Shown here piece after piece: positions 3,507-28,584 of a stretch of 30,969 bases of DNA (position 1 is the stretch's first letter; each line of letters starts with the position of its first letter). The stretch comes from Clostridia bacterium. GTDB taxonomy: Bacteria > Bacillota > Clostridia > Christensenellales > Aristaeellaceae. Location of the stretch: assembly GCA_045599485.1 (NCBI GenBank), contig JAZRWA010000050.1:1-30969 (forward strand), read 5' to 3'. Both the position numbers and the translations under genes were made by a program. The notes beneath the pieces were generated by a model. It was not told the DNA's origin. It did not search any database and was given only the letters and a program-made list of their open reading frames with translations.

Positions 3507-3559
3507 GGGTTTTCCTCCCTGATATGGATTTGTCCCAACGGGACATTAATACAGATATA

Positions 3560-3588
3560 ATTATATCGATAATGTTTTTTCATGTCAA
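3560..3588 (-). promoter_or_regulatory. sigma-A-type promoter for the 1596..3506 reductase gene
   Basis: On the minus strand: TTGACA (3588..3583), 17-nt spacer, TATAAT (3565..3560). Both hexamers match consensus. Confidence 0.55.
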
Positions 3589-3614
3589 GTACAAACAAAA
3601 AACATTACAACCTG

Positions 3615-3643
3615 TTGACAATGGTCAGATTTCGTGATTTAAT
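3615..3643 (+). promoter_or_regulatory. sigma-A-type promoter for the T-box leader
   Basis: TTGACA at 3615..3620, 17-nt spacer containing an extended -10 TG at 3635..3636, and TTTAAT at 3638..3643. Confidence 0.45.
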
Positions 3644-3649
3644 AACATC

Positions 3650-3932
3650 ACAAACCGATGAAGAAGACGAGTACATCCCTTAAACAATCCCAAAGAGAGC
3701 CGCGGATGGTGAAATCGCGGCGGATGGTACCGGATGGAATGGACTTCCGAGGGCGACCCGAACGAACGCCGGTTCAAGTAGGCAAGCCGGAGATGATCTC
3801 TCCGTTAACAACAGTCGGCATATGAAAGTATGTCTGAGGCGGACGCCGCAAGGCGTCAAGCGGGGTGGCACCGCAGGAAGATTACAGTGATCGATCCTGT
3901 CCCGGCAAGAAATTGTCCGGGACAGGTTTTTT
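3650..3932 (+). promoter_or_regulatory. T-box leader riboswitch, tryptophan (UGG) specifier
   Basis: GA/K-turn-like GATGAAGAAGACGAGTA. AG bay AGAGAG with a distal GGTGAAA loop. Stem I helix CATCC/GGATG brackets a specifier loop with GAA-TGG-A (UGG at 3740..3742). Stem III is GACGCC-GCAA-GGCGTC. T-box core is AAGCGGGGTGGCACCGCAGG (about 3859..3878). The antiterminator 3' strand CCTGTCCC overlaps the terminator stem. Confidence 0.85.
3896..3932 (+). terminator. intrinsic terminator of the T-box leader
   Basis: CCTGTCCCGG ... CCGGGACAGG perfect 10-bp stem, followed by TTTTTT. Confidence 0.8.
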
Positions 3933-4066
3933 ATATGCAGGAGGTCAAAAAGATGAAACAGAAGCGATGGCGCTGCCGCGCCGAATGATGATTGCGTGAA
4001 GATCCCTCATTCCTCTTGAACTCAGCAAAACAAACCATACTATGAATGAAAGAAAGGAAAATCACC

Positions 4067-5089
4067 ATGAAAAAGTTTTTTGCTCTTCTCGTCGCCGTTA
4101 TGATGCTCCTCTCCGCCGCTTCCTTCTCCGTTGCCGAAGAAAAGACCTTTAAGATCGGTATCTGCAATTACGTTTCCGACGCCTCCCTGAATCAGATTGT
4201 GGAAAACATCGAAGCCCAGCTGGCGGACATCACCGCCGCGACGGGCGTCAAGTTCGAAGTGATGTATGATAACTGCGAAGCCAACAGCGCCACCTTGCAG
4301 CTGATCGTCACCAAGTTCATCAGCGCCGGTGTGGACCTGATGATCGGTGTTGCCACCCCCGTGGCCATCGTGATGCAGGGTGCTACAGAAGATAACCAGA
4401 TCCCCGTGGTGTTCGCCGCCGTGTCCGACCCGCTGGGCTGCGGTCTGGTCGAGACCCTTGCAGCACCCGGCGCCAACGTAACCGGCACCTCCGACTATCT
4501 GGATACCAACGCCGTCATGAACCTGATCTTTGCCGCCGATCCCGAGGCCGATATGATCGCCCTGCTGTATGATGTGGGTCAGGATTCCTCCGCCGCCGCC
4601 ATCGCCGACGCCAAGGCTTACCTGACCGCCAAGGGCGTGCAGTACAAGGAATACACCGGCACCAACCCCTCCGAGGTCCTGCAGGCCGCCCAGGCCATTG
4701 CCGCCGATCAGTGCGACGCCGTCTTCACCCCCTCTGACAACACCGTCATGAACGCCGAACTGAGCATTTACGAAGTGCTGGCCGAAGCCGGCATTCCCCA
4801 CTACACCGGTGCTGACTCCTTCGCCCTGAACGGCGCTTTCCTGGGCTACGGCGTGGACTACGCCAACCTGGGCCGCTGCACCGCCGACCTGGCCGCCGAG
4901 ATCCTGGTGGAAGGCAAGGCCCCCGCTGAAGTGCCCGTCATGACCTTCGACAACGGCACCGCCACCATCAATACCGAGATCTGCGCCGAGCTGGGCATCG
5001 ATTTTGACACCGTGTCCGCCGCTTTTGCTCCCTACTGCACCGCCATCAAGACCATCGTGACCGCCGAAAGCTTCGGCGACGTGCAGTAA
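4067..5089 (+). CDS. ABC transporter substrate-binding protein, PF04392 (ABC_sub_bind) family; candidate tryptophan-binding protein
   Basis: Signal peptide MKKFFALLVAVMMLLSAASFSVA. Family-typical blocks VDLMIGVATPVA and VVFAAVSDPLGCGLV...GANVTGTSD. ATG at 4067 is preceded by AAAGGAAAA. It lies directly downstream of the Trp T-box. TAA stop. Confidence 0.8.
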   Translation: MKKFFALLVAVMMLLSAASFSVAEEKTFKIGICNYVSDASLNQIVENIEAQLADITAATGVKFEVMYDNCEANSATLQLIVTKFISAGVDLMIGVATPVAIVMQGATEDNQIPVVFAAVSDPLGCGLVETLAAPGANVTGTSDYLDTNAVMNLIFAADPEADMIALLYDVGQDSSAAAIADAKAYLTAKGVQYKEYTGTNPSEVLQAAQAIAADQCDAVFTPSDNTVMNAELSIYEVLAEAGIPHYTGADSFALNGAFLGYGVDYANLGRCTADLAAEILVEGKAPAEVPVMTFDNGTATINTEICAELGIDFDTVSAAFAPYCTAIKTIVTAESFGDVQ

Positions 5090-8747: not shown

Positions 8748-8823
8748 GGCGCGTTCGTCTAGTGGTCCAGGACAGCGGTCTCTAAAATCGCGAACATGGG
8801 TTCGAGCCCCATACGCGCTGCCA
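8748..8823 (+). tRNA. tRNA with anticodon CUA (decodes UAG); Glu-type architecture, not Pyl-type
   Basis: Hand-folded 76-nt cloverleaf: GGCGCGT|TC|GTCT|AGTGGTCCA|GGAC|A|GCGGT|CTCTAAA|ATCGC|GAAC|ATGGG|TTCGAGC|CCCAT|ACGCGCT|G|CCA. The acceptor stem has 7 bp (G1.U72 wobble) and the anticodon stem has 5 bp. U33 is present, the anticodon is C34-U35-A36 (8782..8784), and A37 follows. The T-loop is TTCGAGC, the variable loop has 4 nt, and the CCA end is encoded. Confidence 0.85.
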
Positions 8824-8825
8824 GC

Positions 8826-8872
8826 AGGGAAAATCAGTGATTTCAAGAAATTTCTGATTTTCCCTTATTTTA
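8826..8872 (+). terminator. intrinsic terminator after the tRNA gene
   Basis: 12-bp stem AGGGAAAATCAG ... CTGATTTTCCCT (8826..8865), followed by TATTTTAT. Confidence 0.6.
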
Positions 8873-8888
8873 TCGTCTTTTTTGCAGA

Positions 8889-9584
8889 TTATCCCTTCAT
8901 ACCATCACAAAAGGTATATCCCTTCCCCCACTCCATCACAATATAACACGGATCGGCAGGGTCTGTTTCGATCTTCTGCCTGAGATTGTGGATATGCACC
9001 AGCACCGTACGCGAGTCCCCGCCGCTGGGCATGTCCCACACGCGCCGGTACAATTCCCTCGGCGTAAAATATTTTCCCCTGTGCTGCACCAGAAAAAACA
9101 GGAGTCTGAACTCCGTCGTGCTCAGATGCACGATCTTGCCATTATTTTCTACCGTGCGGTCAACTGCGTGCAAAGTCAGCCCGCCGCACTTCAAGGAGGT
9201 ATTGTCCTCCGGCGAGAATGCACTCTCACACCGCCGCAGGTTCGCCTCGATGCGCGCCGTCAGCACCTTGTTGTTGAACGGCTTTGTCACAAAATCATCC
9301 CCGCCCGCTTCCAGCGCTTTGATGATCGTATCGCTGTCATCCAGGCAGCTGATGAATATGATGGGACAGGTATACCATTTGCGCATGTGCCGGCACAGAT
9401 CGATGCCATTCGCATCGGGCAGCAGGATGTCCATCAGCATCACATCAAAATGCTCATGCGCCAGCGCCAGGGCTTCCCCCGCCGTCTGCACACAGACCAC
9501 TTCGTATATTTCGGCTTCCTTCAGGTAGTACTCCAGTACCCCTGCAATCATATTATCGTCTTCGACGATCAGCACACGGGTCAT
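8889..9584 (-). CDS. OmpR/PhoB-family response regulator
   Basis: Receiver domain (VLIVEDD...MDILLPD...KPF) plus a winged-helix Trans_reg_C domain (LTLHAVDRTV...LSTTEFRLLFFL...GKGY). RBS AGGAGG. TAA stop. Confidence 0.9.
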   Translation of the reverse strand: MTRVLIVEDDNMIAGVLEYYLKEAEIYEVVCVQTAGEALALAHEHFDVMLMDILLPDANGIDLCRHMRKWYTCPIIFISCLDDSDTIIKALEAGGDDFVTKPFNNKVLTARIEANLRRCESAFSPEDNTSLKCGGLTLHAVDRTVENNGKIVHLSTTEFRLLFFLVQHRGKYFTPRELYRRVWDMPSGGDSRTVLVHIHNLRQKIETDPADPCYIVMEWGKGYTFCDGMKG

Positions 9585-9634: not shown

Positions 9635-9682
9635 AAATAAAAAGTATAATGCTGTCTTTGTGTCATGTCAAGGAGGAATCCC

Positions 9683-11524
9683 ATGCGGCTGCTTCGGCAT
9701 CGCCTCTTCGCGCCTGTCTGCCTTTTTTTGTTTATCTTTCTCCTCACCATTCTGAGTGCCCGGAGCCTCATCCTCTCGACGCCCTCCATCGCCCGAATGG
9801 AACAGGAGCCCCATCATGCGCTCTATTGCATCAGCAGCTTTGATCACGATGCATACGGCGCCTGCACGGCAACACTTCGTCCGGGAAATAATCAAATGCA
9901 GGGGATGCGTATCCTGATCCTCTCCCGCGAACAGATATCCCTTCGCATCAACGGCCGGGATGCCGTGCCTGAAGCCGGTTCGGTGACGGGTCTCATCCGC
10001 TCCTATACGCTGCCCGAGGAATACAACGATGTGCTTCTTTTGACTTTTTCCTCCGCACCGGGGGCGGCCGCTGTCTGCACAGACAAGACGGCGGCCACGC
10101 TGCTGAGCGGTCTGAACTTCGGCCTGCCCGTCTTCTATGGTATTCTGCTGGCACTCATCATCAGCAGCTTTACGATGCTCATGATTCGCCCCATCGCCAT
10201 GCTGCAGGTCTTTACAGCGTACCTGGTCTGTGTCTTCCTCTGGGGCGTGCGCAACTACCTGGGGAACATGATGGACCTGTATCCTCTGCTTGGCATCATC
10301 TCGGAATTCTGTTTTGATTTTGCCGTGGTCCTGGGCGCGGCAACCTGCCTGTTCTTCAGCAAGCGGAATGAGGCCTTGATGCCCATCACCTCTGCGCAAA
10401 TGGCCAAACTGCTGGCGGTCTGCATCCTTTTCACCATCCTCTCACAGCTGTTACCATAGGACGTGACGGGGTGGCTCAGATTTCTCAGCTATACTGTCAG
10501 CGGCATCATCCTCCTCTATTCCGTATGGAAGGGCGGCTCTACCCCCTGGTGTGTCCTGATCGGGCTTGCAATCACGCAGGGTGCCCGTTTTTCCATCATG
10601 CTGTTCGACCTCCTCGGCATGCCCGCGTGCTTTCTCCTGCCCTATCTTCGCGGGCCCCACATCTTCATGATGCCCTTCATCATCGGCTGCCAGCTGCACA
10701 TCAATTCTGTCTACGACAAAAAGTTTTGCGAAGCCGAGCAGCTGGCGGCAAAACTGAGTTAGAGCAACCGCCTGCTGGACAAAAAGGTGGAGGAGCGCAC
10801 CAGGGAGCTGCGCGACCAGGAGCAGATCCGCACCAACCTGATGACCAACATCTTCCATGATCTCCGCTCACCGCTGCTCATCATGCAGGGCTGCATGGAG
10901 CACTTAAACCGCGGAGAAAATGATCCAAAGTATCTGGAAGTGCTCACCGGCAGGCTCTCCTTCATCACAAAGCTGACGGAGGATCTGTTCAATGTCGTCA
11001 AACTCGAAGACAACACCATGCTCATGGAAACGGAGCCTGTGCCGATTAAGCCCCTGCTCGAACAGACCATCACAGGCTGCATGCCCATGCTGTAGGAAAA
11101 GCAGATCGGCCTCAACACGGAACTGGCGGATGGTATGCTGGCCTGGGGCGATGAGATCTGGCTGCAGCGCGCGCTGCAGAACCTCATCGTAAACGCTATC
11201 TACTATTCCCCGCGCGGCAGCGCGCCCATCGCGGTGCGGTTGTGGCGCGAGGACCAATGGATCGCCATCTCGGTATCCGACTCGGGCAGAGGCATCTCCG
11301 AGGAGGACCAAGCGCAGATTTTTGAAAGATACTACCGCGTAAGTGCTTCCGCGAAGCATTCATCGAGCGGCCTGGGGCTCTCCATTGCGCACAGGATCGC
11401 AGAGCAGCACCGGGGAGAGCTTACCGTGCAGAGTGAACTGGGTGCAGGCTCCTGTTTTACCATGCGCCTGCCGCTGTGGAGCACCGAGGTGGATTCGATC
11501 GTTCCTGCCGAAAACACCGATTAA
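9683..11524 (+). CDS. multi-TM sensor histidine kinase; single reading frame containing three in-frame TAG codons
   Basis: Track ORFs 9665.., 10463.., 10787.. and 11135.. all share one frame. They are separated only by TAG at 10457..10459, 10760..10762 and 11093..11095. ATG at 9683 sits 6 nt after AAGGAGG. H-box FHDLRSPL, N-box LQNLIVNAIYYS, G-boxes DSGRGI and GLGLSI. TAA stop. Confidence 0.8.
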
Positions 11525-11765: not shown

Positions 11766-12686
11766 ATGAAAGCGTTGAAACGTTTTGCCGGTGCTGCCTG
11801 CGCGCTGATGCTGGCTGTATCCGGCACAGCCCTGGCCGATTACAAGCCCGGCACGTACGAGGAAGTCGTGCGCGGCATGGGCGGTAAGGTATACTTTGAG
11901 ATCACTTTTGATGAGACCTCTCTGGTCGACATCAAGATCACCAAGCACCACGAGACCGAGGGCTTCGGCGACCGCGCCATCGAAAACGTGATCCCCGCGA
12001 TCATTGCCGCCCAGTCCACCGAAGTCGACAACTGGTCAGGCGCAACCATTACGTCCGAAGCCATCAAGAAGGCCGTTACCCAGGCCATGGAAGAGGCTTA
12101 TGTAGAAGGCGAAGCCGCTCCCGCAGGGGCTGCCTTCGTGCCCGGCACGTATGAAGAAGTCGTGCGCGGCATGGGCGGAAAGGTGTACTTTGAGATCACT
12201 TTTGACGAGAACTCTCTTGTCGACATCAAGATCACCAAGCATCACGAGACCGAAGGCTTCGGCGACCGCGCCATTGAGAACGTGATCCCCGCGATCATTG
12301 CCGCCCAGTCCACCGAGGTCGATAACTGGAGCGGTGCCACGATCACGTCCGAAGCCATTAAAAAGGCCGTCACCCTCGCCATGGAAGCGGCGGCTGTGCC
12401 TGCTGCCGCGGAAGCCATCTACAAGCCCGGCACGTATGAGGAAGTCGTCCGCGGCATGGGCGGAAAGGTGTACTTCGAGATCACCTTTGATGAGACTTCT
12501 CTTGTCGATATCAAGATCACCAAGCATCACGAGACCGAAGGCTTCGGCGACCGCGCCATCGAGAACGTGATTCCCGCAATCCTTGCCGCCCAATCCACCG
12601 AGGTCGACAACTGGTCCGGTGCCACCATCACGAGCGAAGCCATTAAGAAAGCCGTCACCCAGGCCATGGCAGAGGCTGCCAATTAA
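11766..12686 (+). CDS. exported protein made of three tandem FMN_bind domains (predicted ApbE flavinylation substrate)
   Basis: Sec signal peptide MKALKRFAGAACALMLAVSGTALA. Three ~95-aa units each contain GGKVYFEITFD...ETEGFGDRAIE...VDNWSGATITSEAIKKAV (FMN_bind pattern with the Dxx[ST]GAT motif). TAA stop. Confidence 0.85.
   Translation: MKALKRFAGAACALMLAVSGTALADYKPGTYEEVVRGMGGKVYFEITFDETSLVDIKITKHHETEGFGDRAIENVIPAIIAAQSTEVDNWSGATITSEAIKKAVTQAMEEAYVEGEAAPAGAAFVPGTYEEVVRGMGGKVYFEITFDENSLVDIKITKHHETEGFGDRAIENVIPAIIAAQSTEVDNWSGATITSEAIKKAVTLAMEAAAVPAAAEAIYKPGTYEEVVRGMGGKVYFEITFDETSLVDIKITKHHETEGFGDRAIENVIPAILAAQSTEVDNWSGATITSEAIKKAVTQAMAEAAN
11841..12683 (+). repeat. three tandem near-identical coding repeats (units start at 11841, 12135 and 12420)
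   Basis: The same ~250-nt block recurs with periods of 294 and 285 nt. The protein units are almost identical and differ mainly by synonymous or linker changes. Confidence 0.85.
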
Positions 12687-12763: not shown

Positions 12764-14341
12764 ATGAAGGACATTTCCAGAAGACAATTCCTCAAGGGCG
12801 CCGCGGCCGGTACCGTCGCCGCTGCCAGCGTCGGCATGCTGGGCACTTCCGCCATGGCGGCTGCTGTCAAGTCCACCGATGTGAAGTGGGATGCTGAATA
12901 CGATGTGGTCATCGTCGGTTACGGCGCTGCCGGCGCTACCGCCGCCATCACCGCTGCTGACAAGGGTGTCAAGGTTCTGCTGACCGAAAAGTGCCCCGAA
13001 GGCCAGGAGGGCGGCAACACCAAGTACTCCGGTCAGGGTCTGCAGTGCTTCGAAGGCAAGGAAAACGCCATCACCTACTACAAGAGCCTGCGCGGCTTCT
13101 TCAACACTCCCTCCGATGCCGTCATTGAAGCCTATGCCGATAAGGTCGCCGAAATGCGTGAGTGGCTGATCTCCCTGGGCGCTGACCCCGTAAAGCTGGA
13201 CGACTACAAGGGCACCGGCGAGCCCTGGCGCTCCAAGGGTGAATATCCCGAACTGGTTGGCGCCGGTCACATGCTCTACTACTGCGTCTCCGGCAACAGC
13301 TTTGACGGCGCTTTCTACAACCTGCTGCAGGACAACGTGGATGACCGCAGCGACAAGATCGATGTCTGGTTCGAAGCTCCTGCCCAGCACCTGGTGCAGG
13401 ATCCCGAGACCAAAGAGATCCTGGGCGTTCAGATCTGCAAGGAAGGCACTGTGATGAACGTACGCGCCAAGAATGGCGTCATCCTGACCACCGGCGGCTT
13501 CGAGAACAACCCCCAGATGGTGCAGGACTACCTGCAGCAGCCCTATGTGCAGCCCTACGGCTCCCTGTACAACACCGGTGACGGCATCAAGATGGCTCAG
13601 GAAGTCAATGCCGACCTGTGGCACATGAGCAACGCCGCCGGCTTCCTGTGGTGCTACCAGCCCCCGAAGGCCTCCCGTGCCATGCCCATCCGCACCGCCG
13701 CCAAGGGCATCTTTGTCGGCCCCTCCGGTGAGCGCTACATGGATGAGACCCAGTCCACCCGTCATGGCCGCATCTACTTCGCCGGTCGTTACATCCAGAT
13801 GCCCTCCCCCCTGCCCGCTTTCATGATCATGGACTCCGACGCGATCAAGTCCGGTAAGCTGTTCAGCTCCTTCTCCGCCAACAACGAGCAGGAGATCGCC
13901 GACGGCTACTTCATCACCGCCGACACCGTGGAAGAACTGGCTGACAAGATCGCTGCCCAGCTGCCCGAAGCTGTCCATCGTCCCTATGCTGCCACCACCT
14001 TCCAGCAGAACCTGGTGAGCACCATTGAAAAGTGGAACGCTTCCTGCGACGCCGGCAAGGACGAGCGCTACGAGCGTCCCGCCAACACCCTGACCCCCAT
14101 CAAGAACGGCCCGTTCTATGCTGTGGAGATCGGTATCGAAATGTACAATACGCAGGGCGGCCCCGTCCGCAACGAAAAGGGTCAGGTCATCGACCTGGAC
14201 GGCAACCCCATTCCCCACCTGTTCTCTGCCGGCGAGCTGGGCGCCATCTGGTCCGACTCCTACAACGGCGGCGGCAACCTGGGTGAATGCGTGGCCTTCG
14301 GCCGCATCTCCGGCGAGAACGCCGCGAATGGCCTGGTCTGA
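12764..14341 (+). CDS. Tat-exported FAD-dependent oxidoreductase (fumarate-reductase / 3-ketosteroid-dehydrogenase-like flavoprotein)
   Basis: Twin-arginine signal SRRQFLKGAAAGTVAAASVG. FAD motif DVVIVGYGAAGATAA. C-terminal LFSAGELG... block typical of FAD_binding_2 proteins. TGA stop. Confidence 0.85.
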   Translation: MKDISRRQFLKGAAAGTVAAASVGMLGTSAMAAAVKSTDVKWDAEYDVVIVGYGAAGATAAITAADKGVKVLLTEKCPEGQEGGNTKYSGQGLQCFEGKENAITYYKSLRGFFNTPSDAVIEAYADKVAEMREWLISLGADPVKLDDYKGTGEPWRSKGEYPELVGAGHMLYYCVSGNSFDGAFYNLLQDNVDDRSDKIDVWFEAPAQHLVQDPETKEILGVQICKEGTVMNVRAKNGVILTTGGFENNPQMVQDYLQQPYVQPYGSLYNTGDGIKMAQEVNADLWHMSNAAGFLWCYQPPKASRAMPIRTAAKGIFVGPSGERYMDETQSTRHGRIYFAGRYIQMPSPLPAFMIMDSDAIKSGKLFSSFSANNEQEIADGYFITADTVEELADKIAAQLPEAVHRPYAATTFQQNLVSTIEKWNASCDAGKDERYERPANTLTPIKNGPFYAVEIGIEMYNTQGGPVRNEKGQVIDLDGNPIPHLFSAGELGAIWSDSYNGGGNLGECVAFGRISGENAANGLV

Positions 14342-14500: not shown

Positions 14501-15508
14501 TTAATCCTTACTCTTCTTTGCAAAGTTCCACGCGCTTTCGCACATATCCTCCAGCGTATGGATGGCTTCCCAGCCCAGCAGCGTTTTTGCCTTTGATGCA
14601 TCGGCCCAGAAGGCGGGCAGATCGCCGGCTCTGCGAGGACCGAAATTGTAAGACAATTTGATACCGTTCACCCGTTCAAACGTATCCACCAGCTCCTGTA
14701 CCGATACACCGTGTCCCGTGCCCAGGTTGACGGCCTCCGCACCGTGATGGTTTTCCGCGTATTCCAACGCCTTCAGGTGACCCACAGCCAGGTCCACCAC
14801 GTGCAGGTAATCGCGCAGACATGTGCCGTCCGGCGTCGGATAATCGTTGCCGAAGATCGTCAGCTTTTTCAGCTTGCCCATTGCCACCTGATTGATATAG
14901 GGCATGATGTTGTTGGGGATGCCGTTCGGATCGTCGCCCAGCAGCCCGGAGCCATGCGCGCCGATCGGGTTGAAATAGCGCAGCAGCACCGCACAGAAAT
15001 CCGGATGCACGGCTGCGTAATCCGTCAGAATGCGTTCGATCATCACCTTGGTCCAGCCATAGGGACTGGTCGAGCAGATGGCCGGCATGTCTTCCTTGTA
15101 GGGGTACGGATTGTTCGGGCCATACACTGTCGCGGAGGAGGAGAAAATAAACCGTTTGCAGCCGAACTCTTCCATGACCTCCAATAGTGTCATGGTGCTG
15201 TCCAGATTGTTGCGGTAATACGCAAGAGGCTCTTCCACGCTTCTGCCGACCGCCTTGAAGCCCGCAAAATGAATGACAGCATCCACAGGCGATTCGGAAA
15301 ACGCTTGCCGCAAACCGCCACGGTCCGCGCAATCCACCTGAAAGAAAGCAGGCCTTGTCCCCGTGATCTGCTCGATACGATCGATCACATCCGCCTTGGC
15401 ATTGGACAGATCATCCACAACAGTCACCTGATACCCGGCGTTTTGCAACTCCACCATCGTATGGCTGCCGATGTACCCGGCGCCGCCTGTTACCAATACA
15501 TTCATCAA
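14501..15508 (-). CDS. galE: UDP-glucose 4-epimerase
   Basis: MMNVLVTGGAGYIGSH Rossmann motif, YGWTK catalytic motif, full length of 335 aa. RBS GGAGGA. TAA stop. Confidence 0.9.
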   Translation of the reverse strand: MMNVLVTGGAGYIGSHTMVELQNAGYQVTVVDDLSNAKADVIDRIEQITGTRPAFFQVDCADRGGLRQAFSESPVDAVIHFAGFKAVGRSVEEPLAYYRNNLDSTMTLLEVMEEFGCKRFIFSSSATVYGPNNPYPYKEDMPAICSTSPYGWTKVMIERILTDYAAVHPDFCAVLLRYFNPIGAHGSGLLGDDPNGIPNNIMPYINQVAMGKLKKLTIFGNDYPTPDGTCLRDYLHVVDLAVGHLKALEYAENHHGAEAVNLGTGHGVSVQELVDTFERVNGIKLSYNFGPRRAGDLPAFWADASKAKTLLGWEAIHTLEDMCESAWNFAKKSKD

Positions 15509-16998
15509 AGGTCCTCCGTATTGACGCTCTCGATGAAACGCTCAAAGGCCGCCCGGCCTTCGGCATTCCGTTTGTATACGCCCGCGTGCTCCAGCACCAT
15601 GGCAAACACCTTGCCCACTTCGACACGCAGGATCTTTCCAGTGTTTTCTTTCGTAAAGGAATACTGCTACTTCAGTTCCGCTGCCCAGGACGCGTGCTTT
15701 TCCAGTGTGTCCGTCAGCGGAAGGTCATGGATCAGCGCGTTTTCCAAATCGGCCAGTTCCCGCTTAAGCCGGGCAGGCAGTACCGCCAGGCCCATGACCT
15801 CGATCAGACCGATGTTTTCTTTCTTGATGTGATGCAGCTCTGCATGCGGATGATAAACGCCCAGCGGATGCTCTTCATTCGTGATGTTGTTGCGCAGCAC
15901 CAGATCAAGCTCGTAATCCTCACCCCTGCGCCGAGCGATGGGCGTAATGGTATTATGCGGCACACCGTCTGTTTCGGCAAAAATGAACGCGGAAGCGTCC
16001 GTGTAAAACCGCCAATGTTCAAGGATACGATCCGCAAGCGCTGTCAGCCGCTCCGGATCGCTGCCTGTCAGGCGCAACACACTGAGCGGCCACTTCACAA
16101 TGCATGCGCGGATATCTTCAAACCCCATAAAGGACACCGTTTTTTCGGCGGGTGCCTTTTCCATGGGGAAAGTAAAGTGTCCGCCCTGAAAATGCTCATG
16201 GCTCAGAATACTGCCGCCCACAATGGGCAGATCCGCGTTGCTGCCCACAAAGTAGTGCGGGAAGGCCGTCACAAAATCCAGCAACTTGCGAAAAACTGAA
16301 CGATCGATGACCATCGGCGTATGCTGACAGTTGAAGACGATACAGTGTTCGTTGTAGTACACATAAGGACTGTACTGCAAAAACCACTGTTCGCCCGCCA
16401 CGCTGACGGGAATCACGCGATGATTCTGCCGCGGCGGCTGTTTTATGCTGCCGGCATAACCCTCGTTTTCGGCACACAGCTGACATTTGGGGTAGCCGGA
16501 AGGCTTTGCGCTGCGGCTCGCCGCAATGGCTTTGGGATCCTTTTCCGGCTTACTCAGGTTGACGGTGATCACCAGGTCGCCGTACTCAGTCGCCACTTCC
16601 CAGCGCAGGTCTTTGGCGATGCGGTAGCGGCGAATGTAGTCCGTATCCTGCGAAAATGTATAGTACCAGTCGGTGGCTTCTTTGGGCGATTGTGCATACA
16701 GATCGGCAAAGCGGCACCGCACCTCATGAGGGCGGGGCGTCAGAATGCCCATCAGGCGGGTATCCAGCAGATCACGGCTTGTCACATCGTCCGGGCATAC
16801 TCCGCGCCGGACGGCGTCATCCAGCAAACCTTTCAGTATTTCCTCCAGCGGCATATCCACGCCCTCGGATGCTGAATACGCATCCAGGGACAATGCGTCC
16901 AGCAGTTGATTTACAATGAAGGTGCTGTCGCATGCCTCGATAAGCCCGTGCCGGATGCCGTAACGGATCAAAGAACTCAGGAATTCGTCGTTGCTCAA
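15505..16998 (-). CDS. galT: galactose-1-phosphate uridylyltransferase (type 2, Firmicutes-like) with one in-frame TAG
   Basis: TTG start at 16998 after AAGGAGGAAGAAC. The track ORF stops at TAG 15667..15669, but the frame continues for 53 more codons (QYSFTKENTGKILRVEVGKVFAMVLEHAGVYKRNAEGRAAFERFIESVNTEDL) to TGA 15505..15507. That TGA overlaps the galE ATG in an ATGA arrangement. Confidence 0.8.
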
Positions 16999-18229: not shown

Positions 18230-19204
18230 TTACCTTACGCGAAGAACAACTTTGCCGATGTTTTCGCCATTCTGAAGGATCGCATGGGCCGCCGCCGCCT
18301 GTGCCATCGGCAGTACTTTGTAAATGGTCGGACGAATTTCGCCACTTTCCAACTTAGGCCAGACATCACGAACCAAAGCATTAAGCAACTCTGCTTTTTC
18401 TTCTACACTGCGTTTGCGGAGCATGCTTCCCTTGAATACAATGCCACGGGTCAAAACAGCCCGGAGCGGAATATTTGCAGTTGTTCCGGCCAAAGTAGAA
18501 ATCAAGACCCAGCGGCAACCTTCATTGACATAAGGGAAGCATTGTCCGATTGTGTCTCCCGCCAGACAGTCGATGGCAACATCCACGGGATGACCCTTCT
18601 CTGCTTCCCGTTTCAGTACATCAGCTGTATCCTATGCGGATGTATCGATCACAACGTCCGCATGCAGATGCGAGATTTTTTCTTTAATATCAGCATTCAG
18701 TACGGATGTAATGACAAAGGCTCCAAAAGCCTTCGCCATCGGAATGCCTACGGAGGCCAGACCACTGGCGCCAGCTGGGAAGAATAACGTCTCGCCCGGC
18801 TTGAAGGCACCTTCTCCGAACAGGTTCAGATAACAGGTAGCATATGCTTCGGGAAGAGACGCCGCTTCTTCAAAGGACAAACCTTTCGGAATGGGCATCA
18901 CCATATTCTGCGGAACAGCCGCATATTCCGCATACCCACCGCCGCCCAGCAAGGCACATACCGGATCGCCGACTTTCCACCGGGTCACGCCTTCGCCCAC
19001 TGCGCTGACAACACCTGCCACCTCCAGACCCATCCATTCAGGCCAGCCTTTGGGAGAAGGATAGGTGCCTGCACGCTGAAGCAAATCTGCTCTGTTCAGT
19101 GCCGCCGCATGCACCTCAATTACGACTTTGCCAGCTTCGGCTGCGGCATCCGGCACTTCACTCCAAACGAGATTCCGTTCCTTGTCAATCAACATGGCAT
19201 ACAT
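18230..19204 (-). CDS. NAD(P)H:quinone oxidoreductase / zinc-type alcohol dehydrogenase superfamily protein with one in-frame TAG
   Basis: Track ORFs 18632..19249 and 18230..18586 share a frame and are joined across TAG 18632..18634. MDR-family pattern (AAALNRADLLQRAGTYP...; AGASGLASVGIPMAKAFGA; C-terminal GKVVL). ATG at 19204 after GGAGG. TAA stop. Confidence 0.8.
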
Positions 19205-19220: not shown

Positions 19221-20288
19221 TTATTCGTTTTGATACATGATTTCACCATTCAGCAATGTCAGCGTGCATTTATATCCCCGGTCGATCTGGAATGCTTTCC
19301 CGTCTTCTGCAGCAAGGGAAAAATCAATATTCCTCTCATCCAGAACCGCAATGTCAGCTGGTCCGTTCAGGCAAAGTCTCCCCCACTCGGGCTGGTTCAA
19401 CGTATCTGCAGCAGAAGTGGTCACAGCACGAAGCACTGCCTCTTCCGACATTCCAAGAGCACGGAACAGACTCATGCAGGCGGTCAAACCGTATATACCA
19501 CCCCTGTTATAAGCGTTCAGCCTTGTAAGATCGGTACTGATGGTAGTTGGCCATATAGATTGAGCTGCTGCAGCCAACAGTACGTCACGATCGGTATGAA
19601 CATACCCCGCATGACCGGTATCCAGAATGATTCCCTTTTTCTGCGCCGATTTCAGACATTCAAATTTTTCAGTCATGGCATTATGCACTCCGCCATGATA
19701 GATATGCGTAAGGATATCCCCTGCGGATAATGTATCCACGATTTCCGACATCGGCACCGGAGAATGAGAACAGTGAACGGTCACCTTCAGGTTCCGTTTT
19801 CGTGCAAAGTCACACACTTCTTTCAACGAGGTTATCGATTGTACTTCTGAAATGGTTGTGTCGAAATAGATCTTGACACCTGCCGCCCTGTTTCCGAATG
19901 CCTCCAGAAGTCTTTCTGTCTCCGCAAAGCTGGCGTGATCATTGTGAATCTGAGTACATACGAATACCACGCTTTTTACCCGGAACAGTTCCAGAAGATG
20001 CCGGTCTCCTTTTTCCGCACCGCATTCGGCAGTGGCGGTCACTCCGAAAGGCAGACAGCCCAGTTCCGCCGGCGTACCGAACCGATCGGTGGAAATTCCA
20101 TTCAGATGCGTATGGATATCCACCAAACCCGCCGATACGATTCGACCCTTGGCATCATACACATATTCCGCTTCAAAGCCGTCTGTATTTCCAAGGTCTG
20201 CAATTTTGCCATTCTGGATGGCGATGTTCCCCTAGAAAAAACGTTCACCATCCCATATCCGGCCGTTTCTGATCAAGATTCTTTCCAT
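19221..20288 (-). CDS. amidohydrolase-family metallohydrolase (deacetylase/dihydroorotase-like) with one in-frame TAG at codon 19
   Basis: ATG at 20288: MERILIRNGRIWDGERFF-TAG-GNIAIQNGKIADLG...GLVDIHTHL. The N-terminal beta-strand motif and the metal-binding HxH lie on opposite sides of TAG 20232..20234, in one frame. TAA stop. Confidence 0.75.
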
Positions 20289-20309: not shown

Positions 20310-22070
20310 TTACTGATATCTTCCGTCAGGGTTGATGGTCAGATTGCGGAAACGTTCCACATCCACCTTGGGCTTACGGTCAGGGGTCAGAATACCGTTC
20401 TGTTCCTGCTATACATCTGTCAGCTGCGTATATACATATCCCTGACAATACGGGATGGCGCGTGCTGCATCCGTCAGTGATTTATACCGCTCAAAGAACG
20501 CCTCTTCTCCGGCGACCTTATCATGATATCCCCATGAGCCGTTGTCTTTATCGTCAAACGCGATCCCGCCGTATTCCGTCAGAAGGAAGGCTTCCTTTCC
20601 GCTCCATTCCTTGCCATCACAGTAAGCCATGCGGTGATCGCAGGCATGCTCTGTAATTTCTTCCCGGCTTGCAAAATGCTTAGCGAGTACATCACCCGTT
20701 GCGGCATAGTCATGCAGACCGAAAATATCGCTTTGAACGCATTCCCAACCATCATTGGTGGAGACCATTCTCGTTCCATCCAATGCTTTTACCTGGTAGT
20801 ACAGCATGTTTGCAGTAGCCTGCATCTGCTTGTTGGCGTACATTCGATCCAAGCCCCAGCTTTCATTCACAGGAACCCAGGTAATAACCGATGGATGATT
20901 GAAATCACGCTCGATTCCACCCGTCAGCGTTTCGCTGGTATTGACCGCTGCTTCATCCGTAAATTCGTACGCGCTCGGAATCTCCTCCCATACGAGCAAG
21001 CCCAACTTGTCCGCCCAGTAGTAATAACGCGGGTCTTCCAGCTTCTGATGCTTTCTTGCGCCGTTATAGCCCAGTTTCAGCGTCCACTCGATATCTGCTT
21101 TGATGGCTTCGTCGCTAGGCGGTGTAATCAACGATTCCGACCAATAGCCCTGATCCAGTACCAAGCGCTGGTAGATGGGCTTGTTGTTCAACAGCACACG
21201 GCCATCCGCAACATGTGCCTTGCGCATGCCAAAGTAAGTGCTGACTTCATCGCCGGTATCCAGTTCCAGCTTCACATCGTACAATTTCGGGGTCTTTGGT
21301 GTCCATCGCACAAGCTGGTGCAGCGTACTGCCGTCCACCATGTCCACCACCATGCGCTGCGTGCGCTGATCCATCACCATGGTCTGTTCCCGCACAGTCG
21401 TTCCTTCCATGGAGACTGTTATCTTCACGCGTACGGGACTTTGCGGTATTTCATTCAGCGTGACCTGAATTGAAGCCGTACCCAGATCCACATCTGGGGT
21501 GACATGGGCGGTTTTCACATACACTCTGCCCGCTTCTTCCAGATATACAGTTTGCCAGATGCCGCTCGTGGGCGTATACCAGCAACCAAACCACTGATCC
21601 TTCCACAGCTGCTTGCCACGCGGCTGGGTACAATCTCTGGCGTCCTCCACACGGACGCACAGATCGTTCTCCCCCTCCCGGAGATACGGCGTAATGTCAA
21701 ACGCGAAAGGGGTGTATCCTCCCTTATGGGTACCCACACATTGGCCATTCACATAGACCATCGCCGCAAAATCCACTGCTCCGAAACGAAGCAGCAGCTT
21801 ATTTCCGGAGGCGATCGCCGGCTTTTCAAAAGTACGCCGGTACCACAACACCGGATGATGGGTTGCATCGTGGATGCCGCTCAGCTCGCACTGATAACAG
21901 AAAGGCACCATGATCTTCTTATCCAGCGTCACATCGGGATTGAACCATTTTTCGGCAAGACCTTTGTTTTCGTCATCATAACCAAACTGCCATTCACCAT
22001 TCAGGTTGACCCAATGAGGGCGGATAAAGTCGGGACGCGGGTGTTCGGGACGCGGAATCATAGTGCTCAT
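20310..22070 (-). CDS. glycoside hydrolase family 2 enzyme with one in-frame TAG near the C-terminus
   Basis: N-terminal RPEHPRPDFIRPHWVNLNGEWQF GH2 pattern with TIM-barrel region. The track ORF ends at TAG 20409..20411, but the frame continues QEQNGILTPDRKPKVDVERFRNLTINPDGRYQ to TAA 20310..20312. RBS GGGAGGAA. Confidence 0.8.
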
Positions 22071-23151: not shown

Positions 23152-24150
23152 TCAAAGAATGCCGCAGGCCTGCAGCGTAGCACGCTGCAAGGCGATCTCA
23201 TAATCATATGTGAAAGGATTCTCTTTTTCTCCGCGAATATAGGCTGCAAAGTCCTTGACCTGCTCGTCATAGCGGCCAACCTGTGTTTTGAACCCCGTCA
23301 AATATTGCTTCGAATCATGATAGGTAGGCGGGTTGTCTTTGCTGAAAGACACCGAAATCATGGAAGGGCCTTCCAACGGCTTGACTTCCACTGTGCCTTT
23401 CGTGCCGCAAATGACCAGTTGGCGTCTGCCAAAGCCATTGACTTCACGAGAGGTCGTGCGTACAGTGCAGCTGGCATTGGGATAAGTGACCACTGCCAAC
23501 GCGTTATCCTGCAACGCCACATCCTGCGGAATCGTTCGTTTGATAAAAGGAACGACCGATTCGGGATTGGGACCCAGGATTTGAAAGATCATGTCAAACA
23601 GGTGACAGCCGAAGATATACATGGTTCCGCATTTGAACGACTTGCTGAGCCATTGGCGGTACGGTTCGCCATGAGCCGTGCTCATCTGTGTATCGATTTC
23701 GAAAATCTCCCCCAGTGCACCGCTCTTTGCAATGGCAATGGCCTCCTGAATGACCGGGTTATAGCGGTACATATATCCCATCTGAACAACCAGATGCTTT
23801 TCGCGTGCCGTGTTCATGACCTCAGCAAACTCATTGATATCTTCGCCACCGGGTTTATCCATATGAATATGATAGCCCTTCCGAAGACATTTCAAAGCTG
23901 CCTGATCCAGGTCTGGCACGTCCGTTTCCACAGAAATAGCCTCCAGATCCGGGATGGCAAACAATTCCTATTCACTCAATCTGGGGAGTCCAATATAACC
24001 TGGCAGATTACCGCGCTTTTCCCACCAGGATTCATCGGGTTCGCAAACACCTACCACATCAAAAATTTCCGGGAAGCGACGAAAGCATTTCATTTTTTCT
24101 TCGCCATGGTTGTGCCCCAGTCCGTACTGCGCGATTTTGATCTTATTCAT
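23152..24150 (-). CDS. Gfo/Idh/MocA-family oxidoreductase with one in-frame TAG
   Basis: ATG at 24150 after GGAGGA. The N-terminal Rossmann segment MNKIKIAQYGLGHNHG...VVGVCEPDE is joined in frame across TAG 23968..23970 (LSE-TAG-ELFAIPDLEAISVETDV) to the remainder of the protein. TGA stop. Confidence 0.8.
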
Positions 24151-24244
24151 ATTGCATCCTCCTGCCTGCGATTTGCCCATCTTGAGCTGTTTTCCAAGTC
24201 AGTATAACCCTCGTCACCGTTCCGGGACAATTTGCTTTGCGTCA

Positions 24245-26458
24245 TCAGGCATTTGTCTTTCGGCTTTGACGATACTCACTGGGAGTCATTCCCTCCTGAA
24301 GTTTGAATTTGCGTAAAAAAGATGGAACATCATTATAACCAACAGCATGGACAAGCGTTTGAACAGTATCTGATCCGGAAATAAGCCTCCGTTTGAACTC
24401 TTCCATGCGAAGGTATGCAATATACTGAACAAAAAGCATGCCTACATCCTGCCGCAGGATGTCATTGATCTGAGACGGGCGCATCTATATCTGTTGAGAA
24501 ACAATGTGAATGGACATTTCATAATCGGTAAAATGGCTATGAATGTATTCCATAACACGGCGCTTGTTAGAAAACTGTCGTTCCTCCTCTAACTCCGATT
24601 TCTTCATACAGGCAAATTGAATCATTTCACAGCCATGTAGAATCAGAGTATCTGTCGTAGGTGATTGAATCATTTTTTCAATCATATCATCCGGGATCGC
24701 AATTCCTTCTTCTTTCATTTGCATAACCAAGGATTGCACCAAGGCATTCACCCTGAACTGAAACATCAGCACAGAAGCAGCAGAGGAAGAAAGAGTGACG
24801 ATTAATTCCTTCCAATATACAAACGCCTGATCTGTCTGAATTCTTTGAATGGATTCCATCAGAAGCGAGCATATCTGAGTTTCCTCCCATCCATTGCTTT
24901 TAGGCGGAGTCATAAAGCATATAGCTTCCGTTCCCGGTCTGCGCAGGCGAATTGCAGCAGCTGCATGATTGAAGCTTTCGGACAAAGCAAGCGGGTCGTC
25001 AATTACAGATCCCACACCGATCACTGCACGATGATATCCTCTTTGACGTATGGTACCGAGCCATTTTTCTGCCAATGATTTCATTGTCTCGTGTTTCTAT
25101 CCCGCCGCATCGCTAAAATTAACTATAACAGCCAATGCATGTTCATTGGGCAGTTCTCCCGGCAGCATACGGATTCCTTTGGGTTCCTGCAAAAAAATCG
25201 CTGATACATTGGATACTGTCATCTCCGCCTTTTCACCGGGAAGTATGTAAAACACGCAGAAATGGACATGTGGAAAATGAACGTCAGAACAGGTGAGCAA
25301 ATAGTCAAGCGCATCTTTGGACTTGATCTTTCCGAAAACCAATTGCTGTACCAGGTGGCTTGCCGCATATAGATGAATCTGCCCCAACTTCAACGTCAGG
25401 ATTTCATTCTCTGTTGTTAACTGTTCATGGTACATTTTTAGAAACGCAAGCTCATTTTCATTTGTTAACAGTTTTCGTCCGCCGGAGAGCTATGTAACAT
25501 ACTTGCGGATTGGAAGAGCATTCGTAAAACTGATGAAGAGCGACAACACCATAAGAAGACCCGCAATTGCAGCAAACAGGATGCTTTGGGATGTGCGAAC
25601 GCTACGGATACTTTCAAAGAAGTTTTCCTATGTATCCAGCAGACAGAAACTGAGTGACCGAACACTGTTCAGAATTCTCAGCATTTCATAGCGTGTCCCG
25701 CTCTCCGCAAAAGAGAGCACACCTGTTCCGGTATGTTTAAGTATTACATTTTGATTGACCGGACTTTCTCCGGATGCATAAAACAGTCCCATAGCTTTGG
25801 TCGGATAGATGAGGACCGTACCGTTTGTTTCTCCCAAATAACTGCTGAACAAATCCTGGAGATATTCAGACGGCATCATATACAAAATCACTATGCTGCT
25901 CTCATGGTCTGGCGTAATAGAAAAAGGCACCAGATACACCAATTGATCACGTAAAGTCGCTTCCTGCGTTTTCAATCGAAGCAACGTGGAAGAGCGGCAA
26001 CTCATGATGGTCTTGTACAACTGACTCTGATCCGGATCATATTCTTTGGATAGATATTGCTGAAAAGCAGAATAGCTCTCACGTCCTTCACAACTATAAA
26101 TACTTTTATCGCCCCGGATATACACATAAATGCCGACTCGGTTATCAATCTTGGTTTTCATGGATTCCAGGATTGCTTTCAAAGCTGATTCATAAGCTAT
26201 ATTCACGATACGATTTTCACTCATCGTGAAGCACTGGCTGAGGGTATAATTACTTTCCAACATGAAATCAAAACGGTCAAGGAGTGTATCAAATTCGCTT
26301 ACTGCACTTTTAAACGAATCCAGCCGGGATGATGCTGTATACTGGATTGAAGACTGAACATTGCCGTTCACGATGATTGCGATAAAAATGAGCACAAAAA
26401 TAGAAGCCAAAAATGTAATCGTCAAATTTTGCAGGAGCATACTGCCTTTTTGTTTCAT
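24245..26458 (-). CDS. membrane-anchored AraC-family sensor/transcription regulator with four in-frame TAG codons
   Basis: A single frame runs from ATG 26458 (RBS GGGAGA) to TGA 24245..24247. It encodes TM1 (LTITFLASIFVLIFIAIIV), an extracytoplasmic domain, TM2 (ILFAAIAGLLMVLSLFISF, in the segment between two TAGs), a cytoplasmic region, and a C-terminal AraC HTH (GYNDVPSFLRKFKLQEGMTPSEYR). The TAGs are at 25628..25630, 25490..25492, 25097..25099 and 24485..24487. Confidence 0.75.
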
Positions 26459-26622
26459 TTTCTTTTTTCTCCCGACAGATATTAAATCCATTTTGTTCAT
26501 TATACCAACAGGTTTCTTTCTTTTCAACGGACCATTCAAGCTGTTTGTGCAAAACAAATCGAAAATGACGGAAAACAAATCAAAACTTACAAAACAGCAA
26601 AGGCAGTAATTTGCACAACAAA

Positions 26623-26651
26623 TTGTTATTTGCGTCTCATCTTCCTATAAT
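26623..26651 (+). promoter_or_regulatory. candidate sigma-A promoter of the sugar ABC operon
   Basis: TTGTTA at 26623..26628, 17-nt spacer, TATAAT at 26646..26651. A small AACAA-A-TTGTT palindrome overlaps the -35 element. Confidence 0.4.
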
Positions 26652-26734
26652 GGAATCAGAAAACCAACGAGCGCAATGCGCTACAGTTCTCACCTCCAAT
26701 AAAAAAAGATGAAACCAAGGAGCAATGGATCTAT

Positions 26735-27682
26735 ATGACAAATATCAGGCAGACCTTACCTCCGGCAAAACGAAGCTTCTGGCAAAGGCTGAAAACCGAC
26801 TTTCGGAAACACTGGATGGTATATGCAATGCTTCTGCCGATTCTCGCCTATTACTTGATTTTCAAGTACGGATCCATGGGATATCTTGCAATTGCTTTTG
26901 AGGATTTCAAACCGGTCAAAGGCATACTGGGAAGTAAATGGGTCGGATTCAAGAACTTCATCAAATTTTTCAGCATGGATACCAGTTCAAGGCTTATTCG
27001 CAACACGTTCTTGCTGAATTTTTATGATATCTTGTTCAGTTTTCCCGCCCCCATCCTGCTGGCTTTGATGATCAATTAGCTAACGCTGAAGCGGACAAAG
27101 AAGCTAATCCAAACTGTAAGCTATGTCCCCCATTTTATTTCCATGGTCGTCATTTGCGGCATGCTCAGAGAATTCTGCTCATCTGATGGTCTATTCAACC
27201 AGGTTCGCATGATGTTGGGACTTGAAGGCTACAACCTGCTGACAAATCCGCGCCTGTATCGTACGATTCATATCGGCAGCGGTATTTGGCAAAGTGTTGG
27301 CTGGAGCAGCATCATCTATCTGGCCACGCTGTCCGGTGTAGATACCCAGCTGTACGAAGCAGCTTATATTGACGGTGCTAACAAAATGCAGCGTATCATC
27401 CATGTTACGCTTCCGGCACTGGTGCCCATCATTACAGTTCAGTTCATCATGAGAATCGGACATATCATGTCAGTTGGCCATGAAAAGATTATTCTGTTGT
27501 ATAACGAGATGATTTTCGAAACAGCCGATGTAATCTCCACATATCTGTATCGTTACGCATTGCTGACCGGTAAATACAGTCTGGGTACCGCTGTTGGTCT
27601 GTTTAACTCTGTTATCAATATCATCATTCTCGTGATTGTCAACAGAACCTTCTCCAAGTTGACCGAGAACAGTCTGTGGTAA
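26735..27682 (+). CDS. LplB-type (COG4209-like) sugar ABC transporter permease with one in-frame TAG
   Basis: Track ORFs 26735..27079 and 27143..27682 share a frame. Across TAG 27077..27079 the sequence reads PAPILLALMIN-TAG-LTLKRTKKLIQTVSYVPHFISMVVICGML, a contiguous conserved block of this permease family. TAA stop. Confidence 0.8.
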
Positions 27683-27699
27683 AGGAGGACGTAGATACA

Positions 27700-28584
27700 A
27701 TGGCGATTGTAGAAAGCAAGAACCGCGGTGAAAAAATCTTCAATGCAGTTAATCTCAGCGTTCTCCTCCTGTTGACACTCGTTTTCTTCTATCCATTGTG
27801 GCATTGTTTGATGGCATCCTTCAGTGATCCTGCCAAGTTAATGCGGCATGTGGGCGGCCTTCTGTGGCCGGATGGTTTCAGTCTGAAAGGTTATGAAGCA
27901 GTACTAAAAAATCGTAACATCGGCATCGGTTACATGAACACCCTGTTCTATGTAGGCGTCGGCACCAGTCTTTCTATGCTTCTGACGATCATCGGCGCAT
28001 ATGCGTTGACCAGACAGGGCTTGATGCTGAAAAAGCCAATTATGGTGCTGATCGTGCTGACCATGTATCTTGGCGGCGGAATGATTCCGGATTTCCTAAT
28101 TATCCGTGATCTTGGTCTGTATGACAGCAGATGGTCTGTGATTCTCCTGACATCGATTACTACCTATAATTTGATGGTCATGCGCACCGCATTTTTGCAG
28201 ATTCCTCATTCTTTGGAAGAATCGGCCATGTTAGACGGTGCAAATGACTTCGTGATTCTGTTCAGAATCCTGCTGCCTGTTACAAAAGCTACCATCGCGG
28301 TTGTAACTCTCTTCTATGCAGTCGGACGTTGGAACGCTTGGTTTAACGCATCCATTTTCCTTCGCGATCGTGAAAAATATCCGCTGCAGCTGTTCCTGCG
28401 TGAAATTCTGATTTCGAGCACCGTGACCGGCGATGAAGGCTCTGCAGAAGACGGCGTCTACTATCTGTCTGAGTTGCTTAAGTATTGCACCATCATCGTA
28501 TCTACCGTTCCGATCCTGTGCATTTATCCATTTGTCCAGAAATATTTTGTTACCGGTGTAATGTTGGGCTCTGTGAAAGGATGA
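27700..28584 (+). CDS. LplC-type sugar ABC transporter permease
   Basis: Six-TM BPD_transp_1-type ORF containing the EESAMLDGAND EAA-loop motif. ATG at 27700 is downstream of AGGAGG. An earlier GTG at 27676 is a less likely start. TGA stop. Confidence 0.8.
   Translation: MAIVESKNRGEKIFNAVNLSVLLLLTLVFFYPLWHCLMASFSDPAKLMRHVGGLLWPDGFSLKGYEAVLKNRNIGIGYMNTLFYVGVGTSLSMLLTIIGAYALTRQGLMLKKPIMVLIVLTMYLGGGMIPDFLIIRDLGLYDSRWSVILLTSITTYNLMVMRTAFLQIPHSLEESAMLDGANDFVILFRILLPVTKATIAVVTLFYAVGRWNAWFNASIFLRDREKYPLQLFLREILISSTVTGDEGSAEDGVYYLSELLKYCTIIVSTVPILCIYPFVQKYFVTGVMLGSVKG

Follow-up and report, generated by a model that had tools for sequence, protein, structure and literature searches.

What is a tRNA with the anticodon CUA, cognate to the stop codon UAG, doing in a bacterial chromosome, and which amino acid does it bring to the ribosome? 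The question is raised by a contig of a Clostridia bacterium, of which we analyzed a stretch of 30,969 bases (the window) and in which ARAGORN calls a single tRNA gene, 76 nt long, at 8748..8823 of the forward strand. That no second tRNA is called in the window agrees with the preliminary description of this DNA, according to which the gene stands alone, outside any cluster. The explanation that we consider likely is that the gene encodes a functional elongator tRNA derived from a tRNA-Glu and that UAG is a rare sense codon in this lineage, most probably one for Glu.

The preliminary description had recognized a canonical cloverleaf with CUA at 8782..8784, and ARAGORN, Rfam and the minimum free energy (MFE) fold, which is itself a cloverleaf, agree on this point. 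The anticodon CTA (tRNA positions 34-36) is given by ARAGORN (cta at sequence position 35) and by direct reading, in a gene with a glutamate-type body and an encoded CCA. The match to RF00005 (8748-8820; 55.5 bits, E=1.5e-9) covers model positions 1-71 of 71, as befits a canonical elongator tRNA, and its score lies above the gathering score of 29, whereas a sub-threshold score had been named beforehand as one of the results that would count against the gene. The acceptor stem (GGCGCGU/ACGCGCU) has G1.U72 as its first pair and leads at its 3′ end to the discriminator G73 and the CCA; a spacer of two bases separates it from the D-stem. The D-arm, GUCU-AGUGGUCCA-GGAC, supplies U11-A24 and U13.G22, and its 9-nt loop contains G18G19 together with the extra 20a/20b bases that are typical of tRNA-Glu. 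The anticodon arm (GCGGU-CUCUAAA-AUCGC) has a 5-bp stem and presents C34, U35 and A36, the variable loop is GAAC, with 4 nt and position 47 absent, and the T-arm is AUGGG-UUCGAGC-CCCAU. Every anatomical detail noted earlier, including G1.U72, U11-A24, U13.G22 and GAAC, was found in its place. The gene had also been credited with a terminator of its own, and here too the evidence is favorable: a 40-nt hairpin at 8826..8865 (+) folds at -19.7 kcal/mol as against -9.0 +/- 2.2 in shuffles (z=-4.8) and is followed by a U-rich tract (8866-8883), and its stem is kept in two related contigs, L002 and L028, through compensatory changes from A-U to G-C.

From which kind of tRNA did this gene arise? A tRNA-Glu-like body had been proposed in the preliminary description, and three lines of evidence concur. 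The augmented D-helix set of tRNA-Glu (U11-A24, U13-G22:A46, residue 47 absent), part of the Glu identity set listed in PMC9976931, is present in the tRNA, hereafter tRNA(CUA). A blastn search of 5,426 E. coli genomes with the 76-nt sequence matched tRNA-Glu only, and its annotated matches in phage genomes were labeled tRNA-Glu (10), OTHER (2) and TERM (1), with no other isotype among them. A single substitution separates the anticodon CUA from CUC, an anticodon of tRNA-Glu. A tRNA-Glu that reads GAR has an anticodon YUC with U34 and C36 as well as a G1-C72 pair; with CUA and a first pair G1.U72, tRNA(CUA) is therefore not a GAR-reading tRNA-Glu. Neither does it have the tRNA-Gln or supE-type set, since G1.U72, C3-G70 and A38 stand in place of U1-A72, G3-C70 and U38; G2-C71, G10 and G73, which belong to that set, are present. 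The amber-suppressor literature on E. coli has it that mischarging by GlnRS is favored by G73, by weak pairing of 1-72 and by the anticodon CUA. [quoted passage not shown]

ARAGORN prints the label tRNA-Pyl for the gene, from the anticodon alone. A tRNA-Pyl is characterized by a short D-loop without G18G19, a 3-nt variable loop, an elongated anticodon stem and the lack of a TpsiC consensus. The 9-nt D-loop with GG, the 4-nt variable loop, the 5-bp anticodon stem and the TTCGAGC T-loop of tRNA(CUA) are at odds with each of these traits, and on this anatomy we rejected a tRNA-Pyl identity.

Is UAG used as a sense codon in the genes of the same chromosome? In a curated set of 24 complete window genes (9,318 codons), for which only TAA and TGA were taken as stops, we counted 13 in-frame TAG codons in 10 genes (eight are named below) and no in-frame TAA or TGA; the stops of the 24 genes are TAA in 14 cases and TGA in 10, with TAG at none. 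The gene fragments that result from the standard code fuse into full-length proteins once TAG is read through, and homology extends past the TAG at every site where this could be checked. The histidine kinase gene (9665..11524, +) has three TAGs (10457-10459, 10760-10762 and 11093-11095) in a single frame that runs from a membrane N-terminus through the H-box FHDLRSPL to an HATPase_c domain at residues 495-604. In galT (15505..16998, -) the TAG at 15667-15669 is residue 444, and homologues align beyond it, to residue about 490 of 497; 45 of the 53 residues that follow the TAG are identical in the related contig L027. An ATGA overlap is the usual junction for translational coupling, and it is only with read-through of the TAG that the TGA stop of galT forms such an overlap with the ATG of galE (15503-15507), as is likewise seen in L027. 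The Pfam domain ADH_zinc_N spans the TAG (18632-18634) of a quinone oxidoreductase gene (QOR; 18230..19204, -), and the N-terminal motif MERILIRNGRIWDGERFF*GNIAIQNGKI of an amidohydrolase (19221..20288, -; TAG at 20232-20234) aligns with PDB amidohydrolases across the TAG. For the glycoside hydrolase family 2 protein (GH2; 20310..22070, -; TAG at 20409-20411) the alignment with PDB 7xyr crosses the TAG and reaches the C-terminus, and relatives possess intact orthologues of 586 aa. Four TAGs (25628-25630, 25490-25492, 25097-25099 and 24485-24487) lie in the gene of an AraC-type regulator (24245..26500, -), which aligns end to end with a full-length 746-aa orthologue in the related contig L004 and whose HTH_18 domain spans the last of them. 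A Gfo/Idh/MocA oxidoreductase gene (23152..24150, -; TAG at 23968-23970) has homologues in relatives, and an ABC sugar permease gene (26735..27682, +; TAG at 27077-27079) was compared with 120 homologues.

The surroundings of these genes are those of an ordinary chromosome, with ABC transporters, a two-component system, flavin reductases, galK-galT-galE, glycosidases and sugar permeases, in a genome of about 55% GC; the release factor genes prfA and prfB are not among the genes of the window. The public NCBI record of the window's contig (31,395 bp) stores the recoded genes as truncated fragments; those at 9665-11524, 18230-19204, 20310-22070, 24245-26500 and 26735-27682 appear in the public protein collection as separate truncated products (P0421, P0422, P0433, P0434 and P0435 are examples). 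Because recoded genes have been deposited in this form, database entries for the lineage are systematically wrong, and the case exposes a mis-annotation of a systematic kind.

Do relatives share the tRNA and the in-frame TAGs? The material that bears on this amounts to about 31 kb of the window and about 50 kb from relatives, all of it metagenome assemblies. A scan of one genome per GTDB species with a degenerate pattern for Glu-like CUA tRNAs recovered an identical tRNA(CUA) in L002, a contig of a horse-faeces MAG named ‘Clostridia bacterium’, which is syntenic with the window left of the tRNA; the 8 kb of L002 that were read contain no in-frame TAG. The same 76 nt, 100% identical, occur in L028 (a Logan contig), with flanks that diverge as they do in L002. 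In the preliminary description it had been remarked that identical suppressor tRNAs in relatives free of in-frame TAGs would make the gene less novel; the 13 TAGs of the window, and the further ones in contigs of the same lineage, speak for the stronger reading. Two ENA contigs, L027 and L029, have about 89% DNA identity to the window over the gal operon. In L027, L028 and L029, genes for CotH, a GH4 glycosidase, an AraC-like regulator and a membrane protein are split by TAG only and rejoin when it is read through, and the 32 other genes called there end in TAA or TGA, so that none of the 32 has a genuine TAG stop. The TAG sites differ from relative to relative; at the galT site of the window, for example, L027 has Lys. 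The galT gene of L027 (L027:11044-12638) is itself broken by a frameshift and not by a TAG, which reflects a fault of the assembly or else a genuine pseudogene.

The nearest point of comparison with the standard code is L004, a syntenic contig with 80-87% protein identity over nine shared genes, in which every TAG-bearing gene that it covers is intact (6-8 genes) and in which the Gfo gene ends in TAG. In-frame TAGs are absent from L004 and from the other syntenic relatives L007, L013, L015 and L030 (65-87% identity). The distribution is thus phylogenetically coherent, with TAGs in the window, L027/L029 and L028 and with none in these five. In the standard-code relatives TAG ends 4 of 56 genes; its rarity as a stop thus predates the change, as one would expect of a codon-capture route. 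The same figure makes the absence of TAG stops the weaker part of the evidence, because with 7% expected it is only weakly significant over about 56 lineage genes (P about 0.02).

At the 3′ side of the tRNA the synteny with both contigs that carry the identical gene stops exactly (window 8824-9584 compared with L002:1-5835 and L028:4392-9708): a two-component system follows in the window, and a PLD-DEAD-DUF3427 helicase and an alpha-glucosidase in L002 and L028. This break makes the flank of the tRNA a variable region, possibly an integration site.

If UAG is a sense codon, then which amino acid does it specify? The call is based on a dozen sites. All of the 120 permease homologues compared (55-87% identity) have Glu in the column of the TAG, the QOR column is Glu in L004, L007, L015, PDB 4dup and PDB 2oby, and the Gfo column is Glu in L004, L007, L015 and L030. 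Other columns are less uniform. That of GH2 is variable, with 61 Q, 37 M and 17 E among 120 homologues; it is Gln in most close relatives and Glu in L030 (79% identity) and in four PDB homologues. The four AraC sites correspond to Q, E, D and G in the L004 orthologue, which is 46% identical. The GalT column is variable as well, GalT gave no PDB match, and PDB alignments at the GH4, amidohydrolase and Gfo sites show variable or poorly aligned columns. Over all sites ancestral E outnumbers Q, and a likelihood ranking places Glu first and Gln second, with a log10 likelihood ratio of 0.94 when only the nearest relatives are used and of 5.3 under a column frequency model. Judged from such alignments, the residue inserted at UAG would quite probably be Glu, and we would be surprised, if not astonished, to see it turn out to be Gln.

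How could Gln nevertheless come to be inserted by tRNA(CUA)? Two routes are conceivable, namely GlnRS recognizing CUA, G73 and the weak G1.U72 pair, or charging with Glu followed by amidation. Gln is what most close relatives have in the GH2 column and what L004 has at the first AraC site, TAG is a single transition away from CAG, and the tRNA possesses G73, G2-C71, G10 and a weak 1-72 pair, while its C34 and A36 suit E. coli GluRS poorly (PMC9976931). Moreover, the known TAG reassignments in phages and in many eukaryotes go to Gln (PMC9523058, PMC8629427). Had UAG been assigned to Gln, however, most TAG sites would descend from CAG by silent transition, and it is ancestral E that dominates at them. 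The TAG of the permease occupies an invariant Glu position (120/120), all relatives have Glu at the QOR and Gfo sites, the likelihood favors E, and tRNA(CUA) is without U1-A72, G3-C70 and U38 and has a D-loop of the tRNA-Glu kind, which GatCAB rejects. We accordingly regard a sense codon for Gln as unlikely, though as an alternative that deserves to be kept in mind.

Three further explanations would remove UAG from the set of ordinary sense codons altogether. The code could be standard and the tRNA a plain nonsense suppressor, with partial read-through and with TAG-bearing genes that are pseudogenes or are rescued at a low level. Suppressor tRNAs do exist among bacteria with the standard code, in about 0.3% of genomes (PMC13092985), and in L003, from the Anaerolineae, a Glu-like tRNA(CUA) is next to fliS and flagellin genes whose stop is TAG; but a suppressor in our window would mean that 10 of 24 genes are pseudogenes, including galT in an intact galK-galT-galE operon, that TAG accounts for every lesion, to the exclusion of TAA, TGA and frameshifts, that sequence after the TAG is still conserved as protein, that different relatives have their TAGs at differing sites, and that there are 0 genuine TAG stops in about 56 lineage genes. 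With all 13 lesions being TAG and the downstream sequence conserved, the pseudogene reading was rejected, and plain suppression seems to us improbable. Could the tRNA instead belong to a prophage or mobile element with a TAG-recoded code, without relation to translation in the host? Glu-like CUA tRNAs were found in dense, phage-like tRNA clusters from metagenomes (L018, L020, L021, L025 and L026), and the right flank of our gene varies among relatives. Against this, the window has neither phage genes nor a match to phage DNA, and its TAGs are spread over 17 kb of chromosomal metabolic and regulatory genes; when the window and the tRNA region were compared with 50,697 phage records by megablast and blastn, no relevant match emerged, and the tRNA pattern had 0 matches in 2.9 million viral contigs. 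Gene content, the empty scan of viral contigs and the lack of a relevant phage record led us to reject a phage origin, which we hold to be very improbable. That the tRNA is a pyrrolysine tRNA and TAG means Pyl is the least credible proposal: it has the label printed by ARAGORN in its favor, but that label reflects only the anticodon and is contradicted by G18G19, the TTCGA T-loop, the 5-bp anticodon stem, the two-base spacer between acceptor and D stems and the 9-nt D-loop, pyl and methylamine methyltransferase genes are absent from the window, and in alignments of ordinary enzymes the TAG sites correspond to Glu.

Some of the contigs encountered in this comparison merit description for their own sake. 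L003 is the Anaerolineae MAG contig DAOTVV010000020.1; its tRNA(CUA), at 4380-4455, is a different Glu-like one, with G1-C72 and A73, and is adjoined by the fliS and flagellin genes with TAG stops (L003:596-4118). Since TAG ends those genes, we rejected the idea that L003 shares the recoding, and its tRNA has the look of an amber suppressor that arose naturally, in a genome where TAG continues to terminate genes. L018 has a tmRNA in addition, and in L026 ARAGORN calls a tRNA with the 4-base anticodon ‘ccaa’ at 9207-9290.

Returning to the reading that we prefer, UAG as a sense codon for Glu, by what steps might it have come about? Several marks of a genome-wide reassignment were found: a tRNA cognate to the codon that used to be a stop, TAG in frame in many genes with homology across it, and, in a small sample, TAG not serving as a terminator (0/24 window genes, 0/32 in relatives). 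A duplicate of a tRNA-Glu would have had its anticodon mutated to CUA and would now read UAG as an elongator. UAG itself would be without a role in termination in this uncultured lineage of gut Clostridia and would be a rare sense codon, as which it makes up 13 of 9,318 window codons. [quoted passage not shown] Release factor 1 (RF1) would be lost or disabled. The change may have been eased by the earlier rarity of TAG as a stop in the family, to judge from the 4 of 56 genes that it ends in standard-code relatives, and its origin would be recent, in one family-level clade of Clostridia from herbivore and human guts whose sisters keep TAG as a stop. The complete scenario, in which UAG is fully reassigned to Glu, RF1 is gone, a duplicated and CUA-mutated tRNA-Glu is charged by the host GluRS, and all of this is recent in one family-level clade, is one that we consider probable on balance, with less assurance than the sense reading of UAG as such.

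How does this compare with the recodings already known? In bacteria, code 4 assigns UGA to Trp in Mycoplasmatales and some endosymbionts, and code 25 assigns UGA to Gly in Gracilibacteria and Absconditabacteria. As in those codes, we have a genome-wide change from stop to sense, a cognate tRNA derived from a tRNA of the new amino acid, and in-frame ‘stops’ that are scattered over ordinary genes. Unlike them, the codon is UAG and the amino acid Glu (or Gln), and the genome, at about 55% GC and rich in carbohydrate metabolism, is not of the AT-rich, reduced kind; the codon being UAG and not UGA, it is RF1 and not RF2 that is expected to be lost. The gut phages that use code 15 (crAss-like and Lak phages among others) resemble our case in that a CUA tRNA reads UAG in the animal gut and that genes look split. 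In those phages, however, the tRNA and the recoded genes, often late genes, are in the phage genomes, TAG goes to Gln and the host code is standard, whereas here the genes are chromosomal housekeeping and regulatory ones, the tRNA body is of the Glu type and the pattern is absent from viral contigs. The peritrich ciliates (code 30) and Blastocrithidia (code 31) likewise turned a stop into Glu with tRNAs derived from tRNA-Glu, but their codes are eukaryotic and nuclear, with UAA and UAG changing together and eRF1 altered; in our window UAG alone changes and UAA is the commonest stop (14/24). Laboratory amber suppressors and the genomically recoded E. coli C321.deltaA share with it the decoding of UAG by a CUA tRNA and the use of a freed UAG as sense, although both were engineered, C321.deltaA with all TAG removed and RF1 deleted, while the present case would be natural, with TAG re-populating genes. 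Pyrrolysine decoding, too, relies on a CUA tRNA that reads UAG, in anaerobic Firmicutes and archaea; its non-canonical tRNA fold, its dedicated PylRS and its confinement mostly to methylamine methyltransferases do not apply here.

According to a Codetta screen of 2021 all known bacterial stop-codon changes involve UGA (PMC8629427), no reassignment of TAG in bacteria is listed in a survey from 2026 that covered about 2.7 million assemblies (bioRxiv 10.64898/2026.04.02.715157), and a study of UGA in Actinomycetota, also from 2026, agrees that the changes are in UGA only (PMC13462651). Pyrrolysine apart, no published bacterial reassignment of UAG was found in the literature that we searched. The mechanism is a stop-to-sense reassignment by way of a cognate tRNA; what sets it apart from all these cases is the domain, the codon and the amino acid taken together.

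If our explanation is correct, no cellular prokaryote before this one would have been seen to reassign UAG to a standard amino acid, UAG recoding having been known so far from phages, eukaryotes and the special case of pyrrolysine, and a new translation table would be needed. It would also mean that RF1-dependent termination can be abandoned in nature, here by a free-living gut bacterium of balanced GC content, providing a counterpart to the engineered RF1-free E. coli. A young case, phylogenetically bracketed by a standard-code sister at about 80-87% protein identity, offers material for deciding between codon-capture and ambiguous-intermediate models, and it matters for infection by phages with a recoded TAG and for the barriers that horizontal gene transfer meets. 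Finally, tRNA(CUA) and its cognate synthetase may serve as a candidate natural amber decoder for genetic-code engineering.

Three regions of the window drew our attention on other grounds. Between the genes for a flavin reductase and an ABC substrate-binding protein lies a stretch of roughly 540 nt (3507-4045) with no convincing ORF and, at gathering thresholds, no Rfam match. Over the AraC and permease genes (window 24000-28000) the GC content dips from about 55-60% to 39-46%; this low-GC region holds 5 of the 13 in-frame TAGs, and the AraC regulator is just 46% identical to its L004 orthologue whereas its neighbors are at 80-87%. The gene at 11766-12686 (+) encodes a secreted protein that is made up of three near-identical copies of an FMN-binding domain, each of about 95 aa, and it sits upstream of the gene for a FAD-dependent reductase with a TAT signal (12764-14341).
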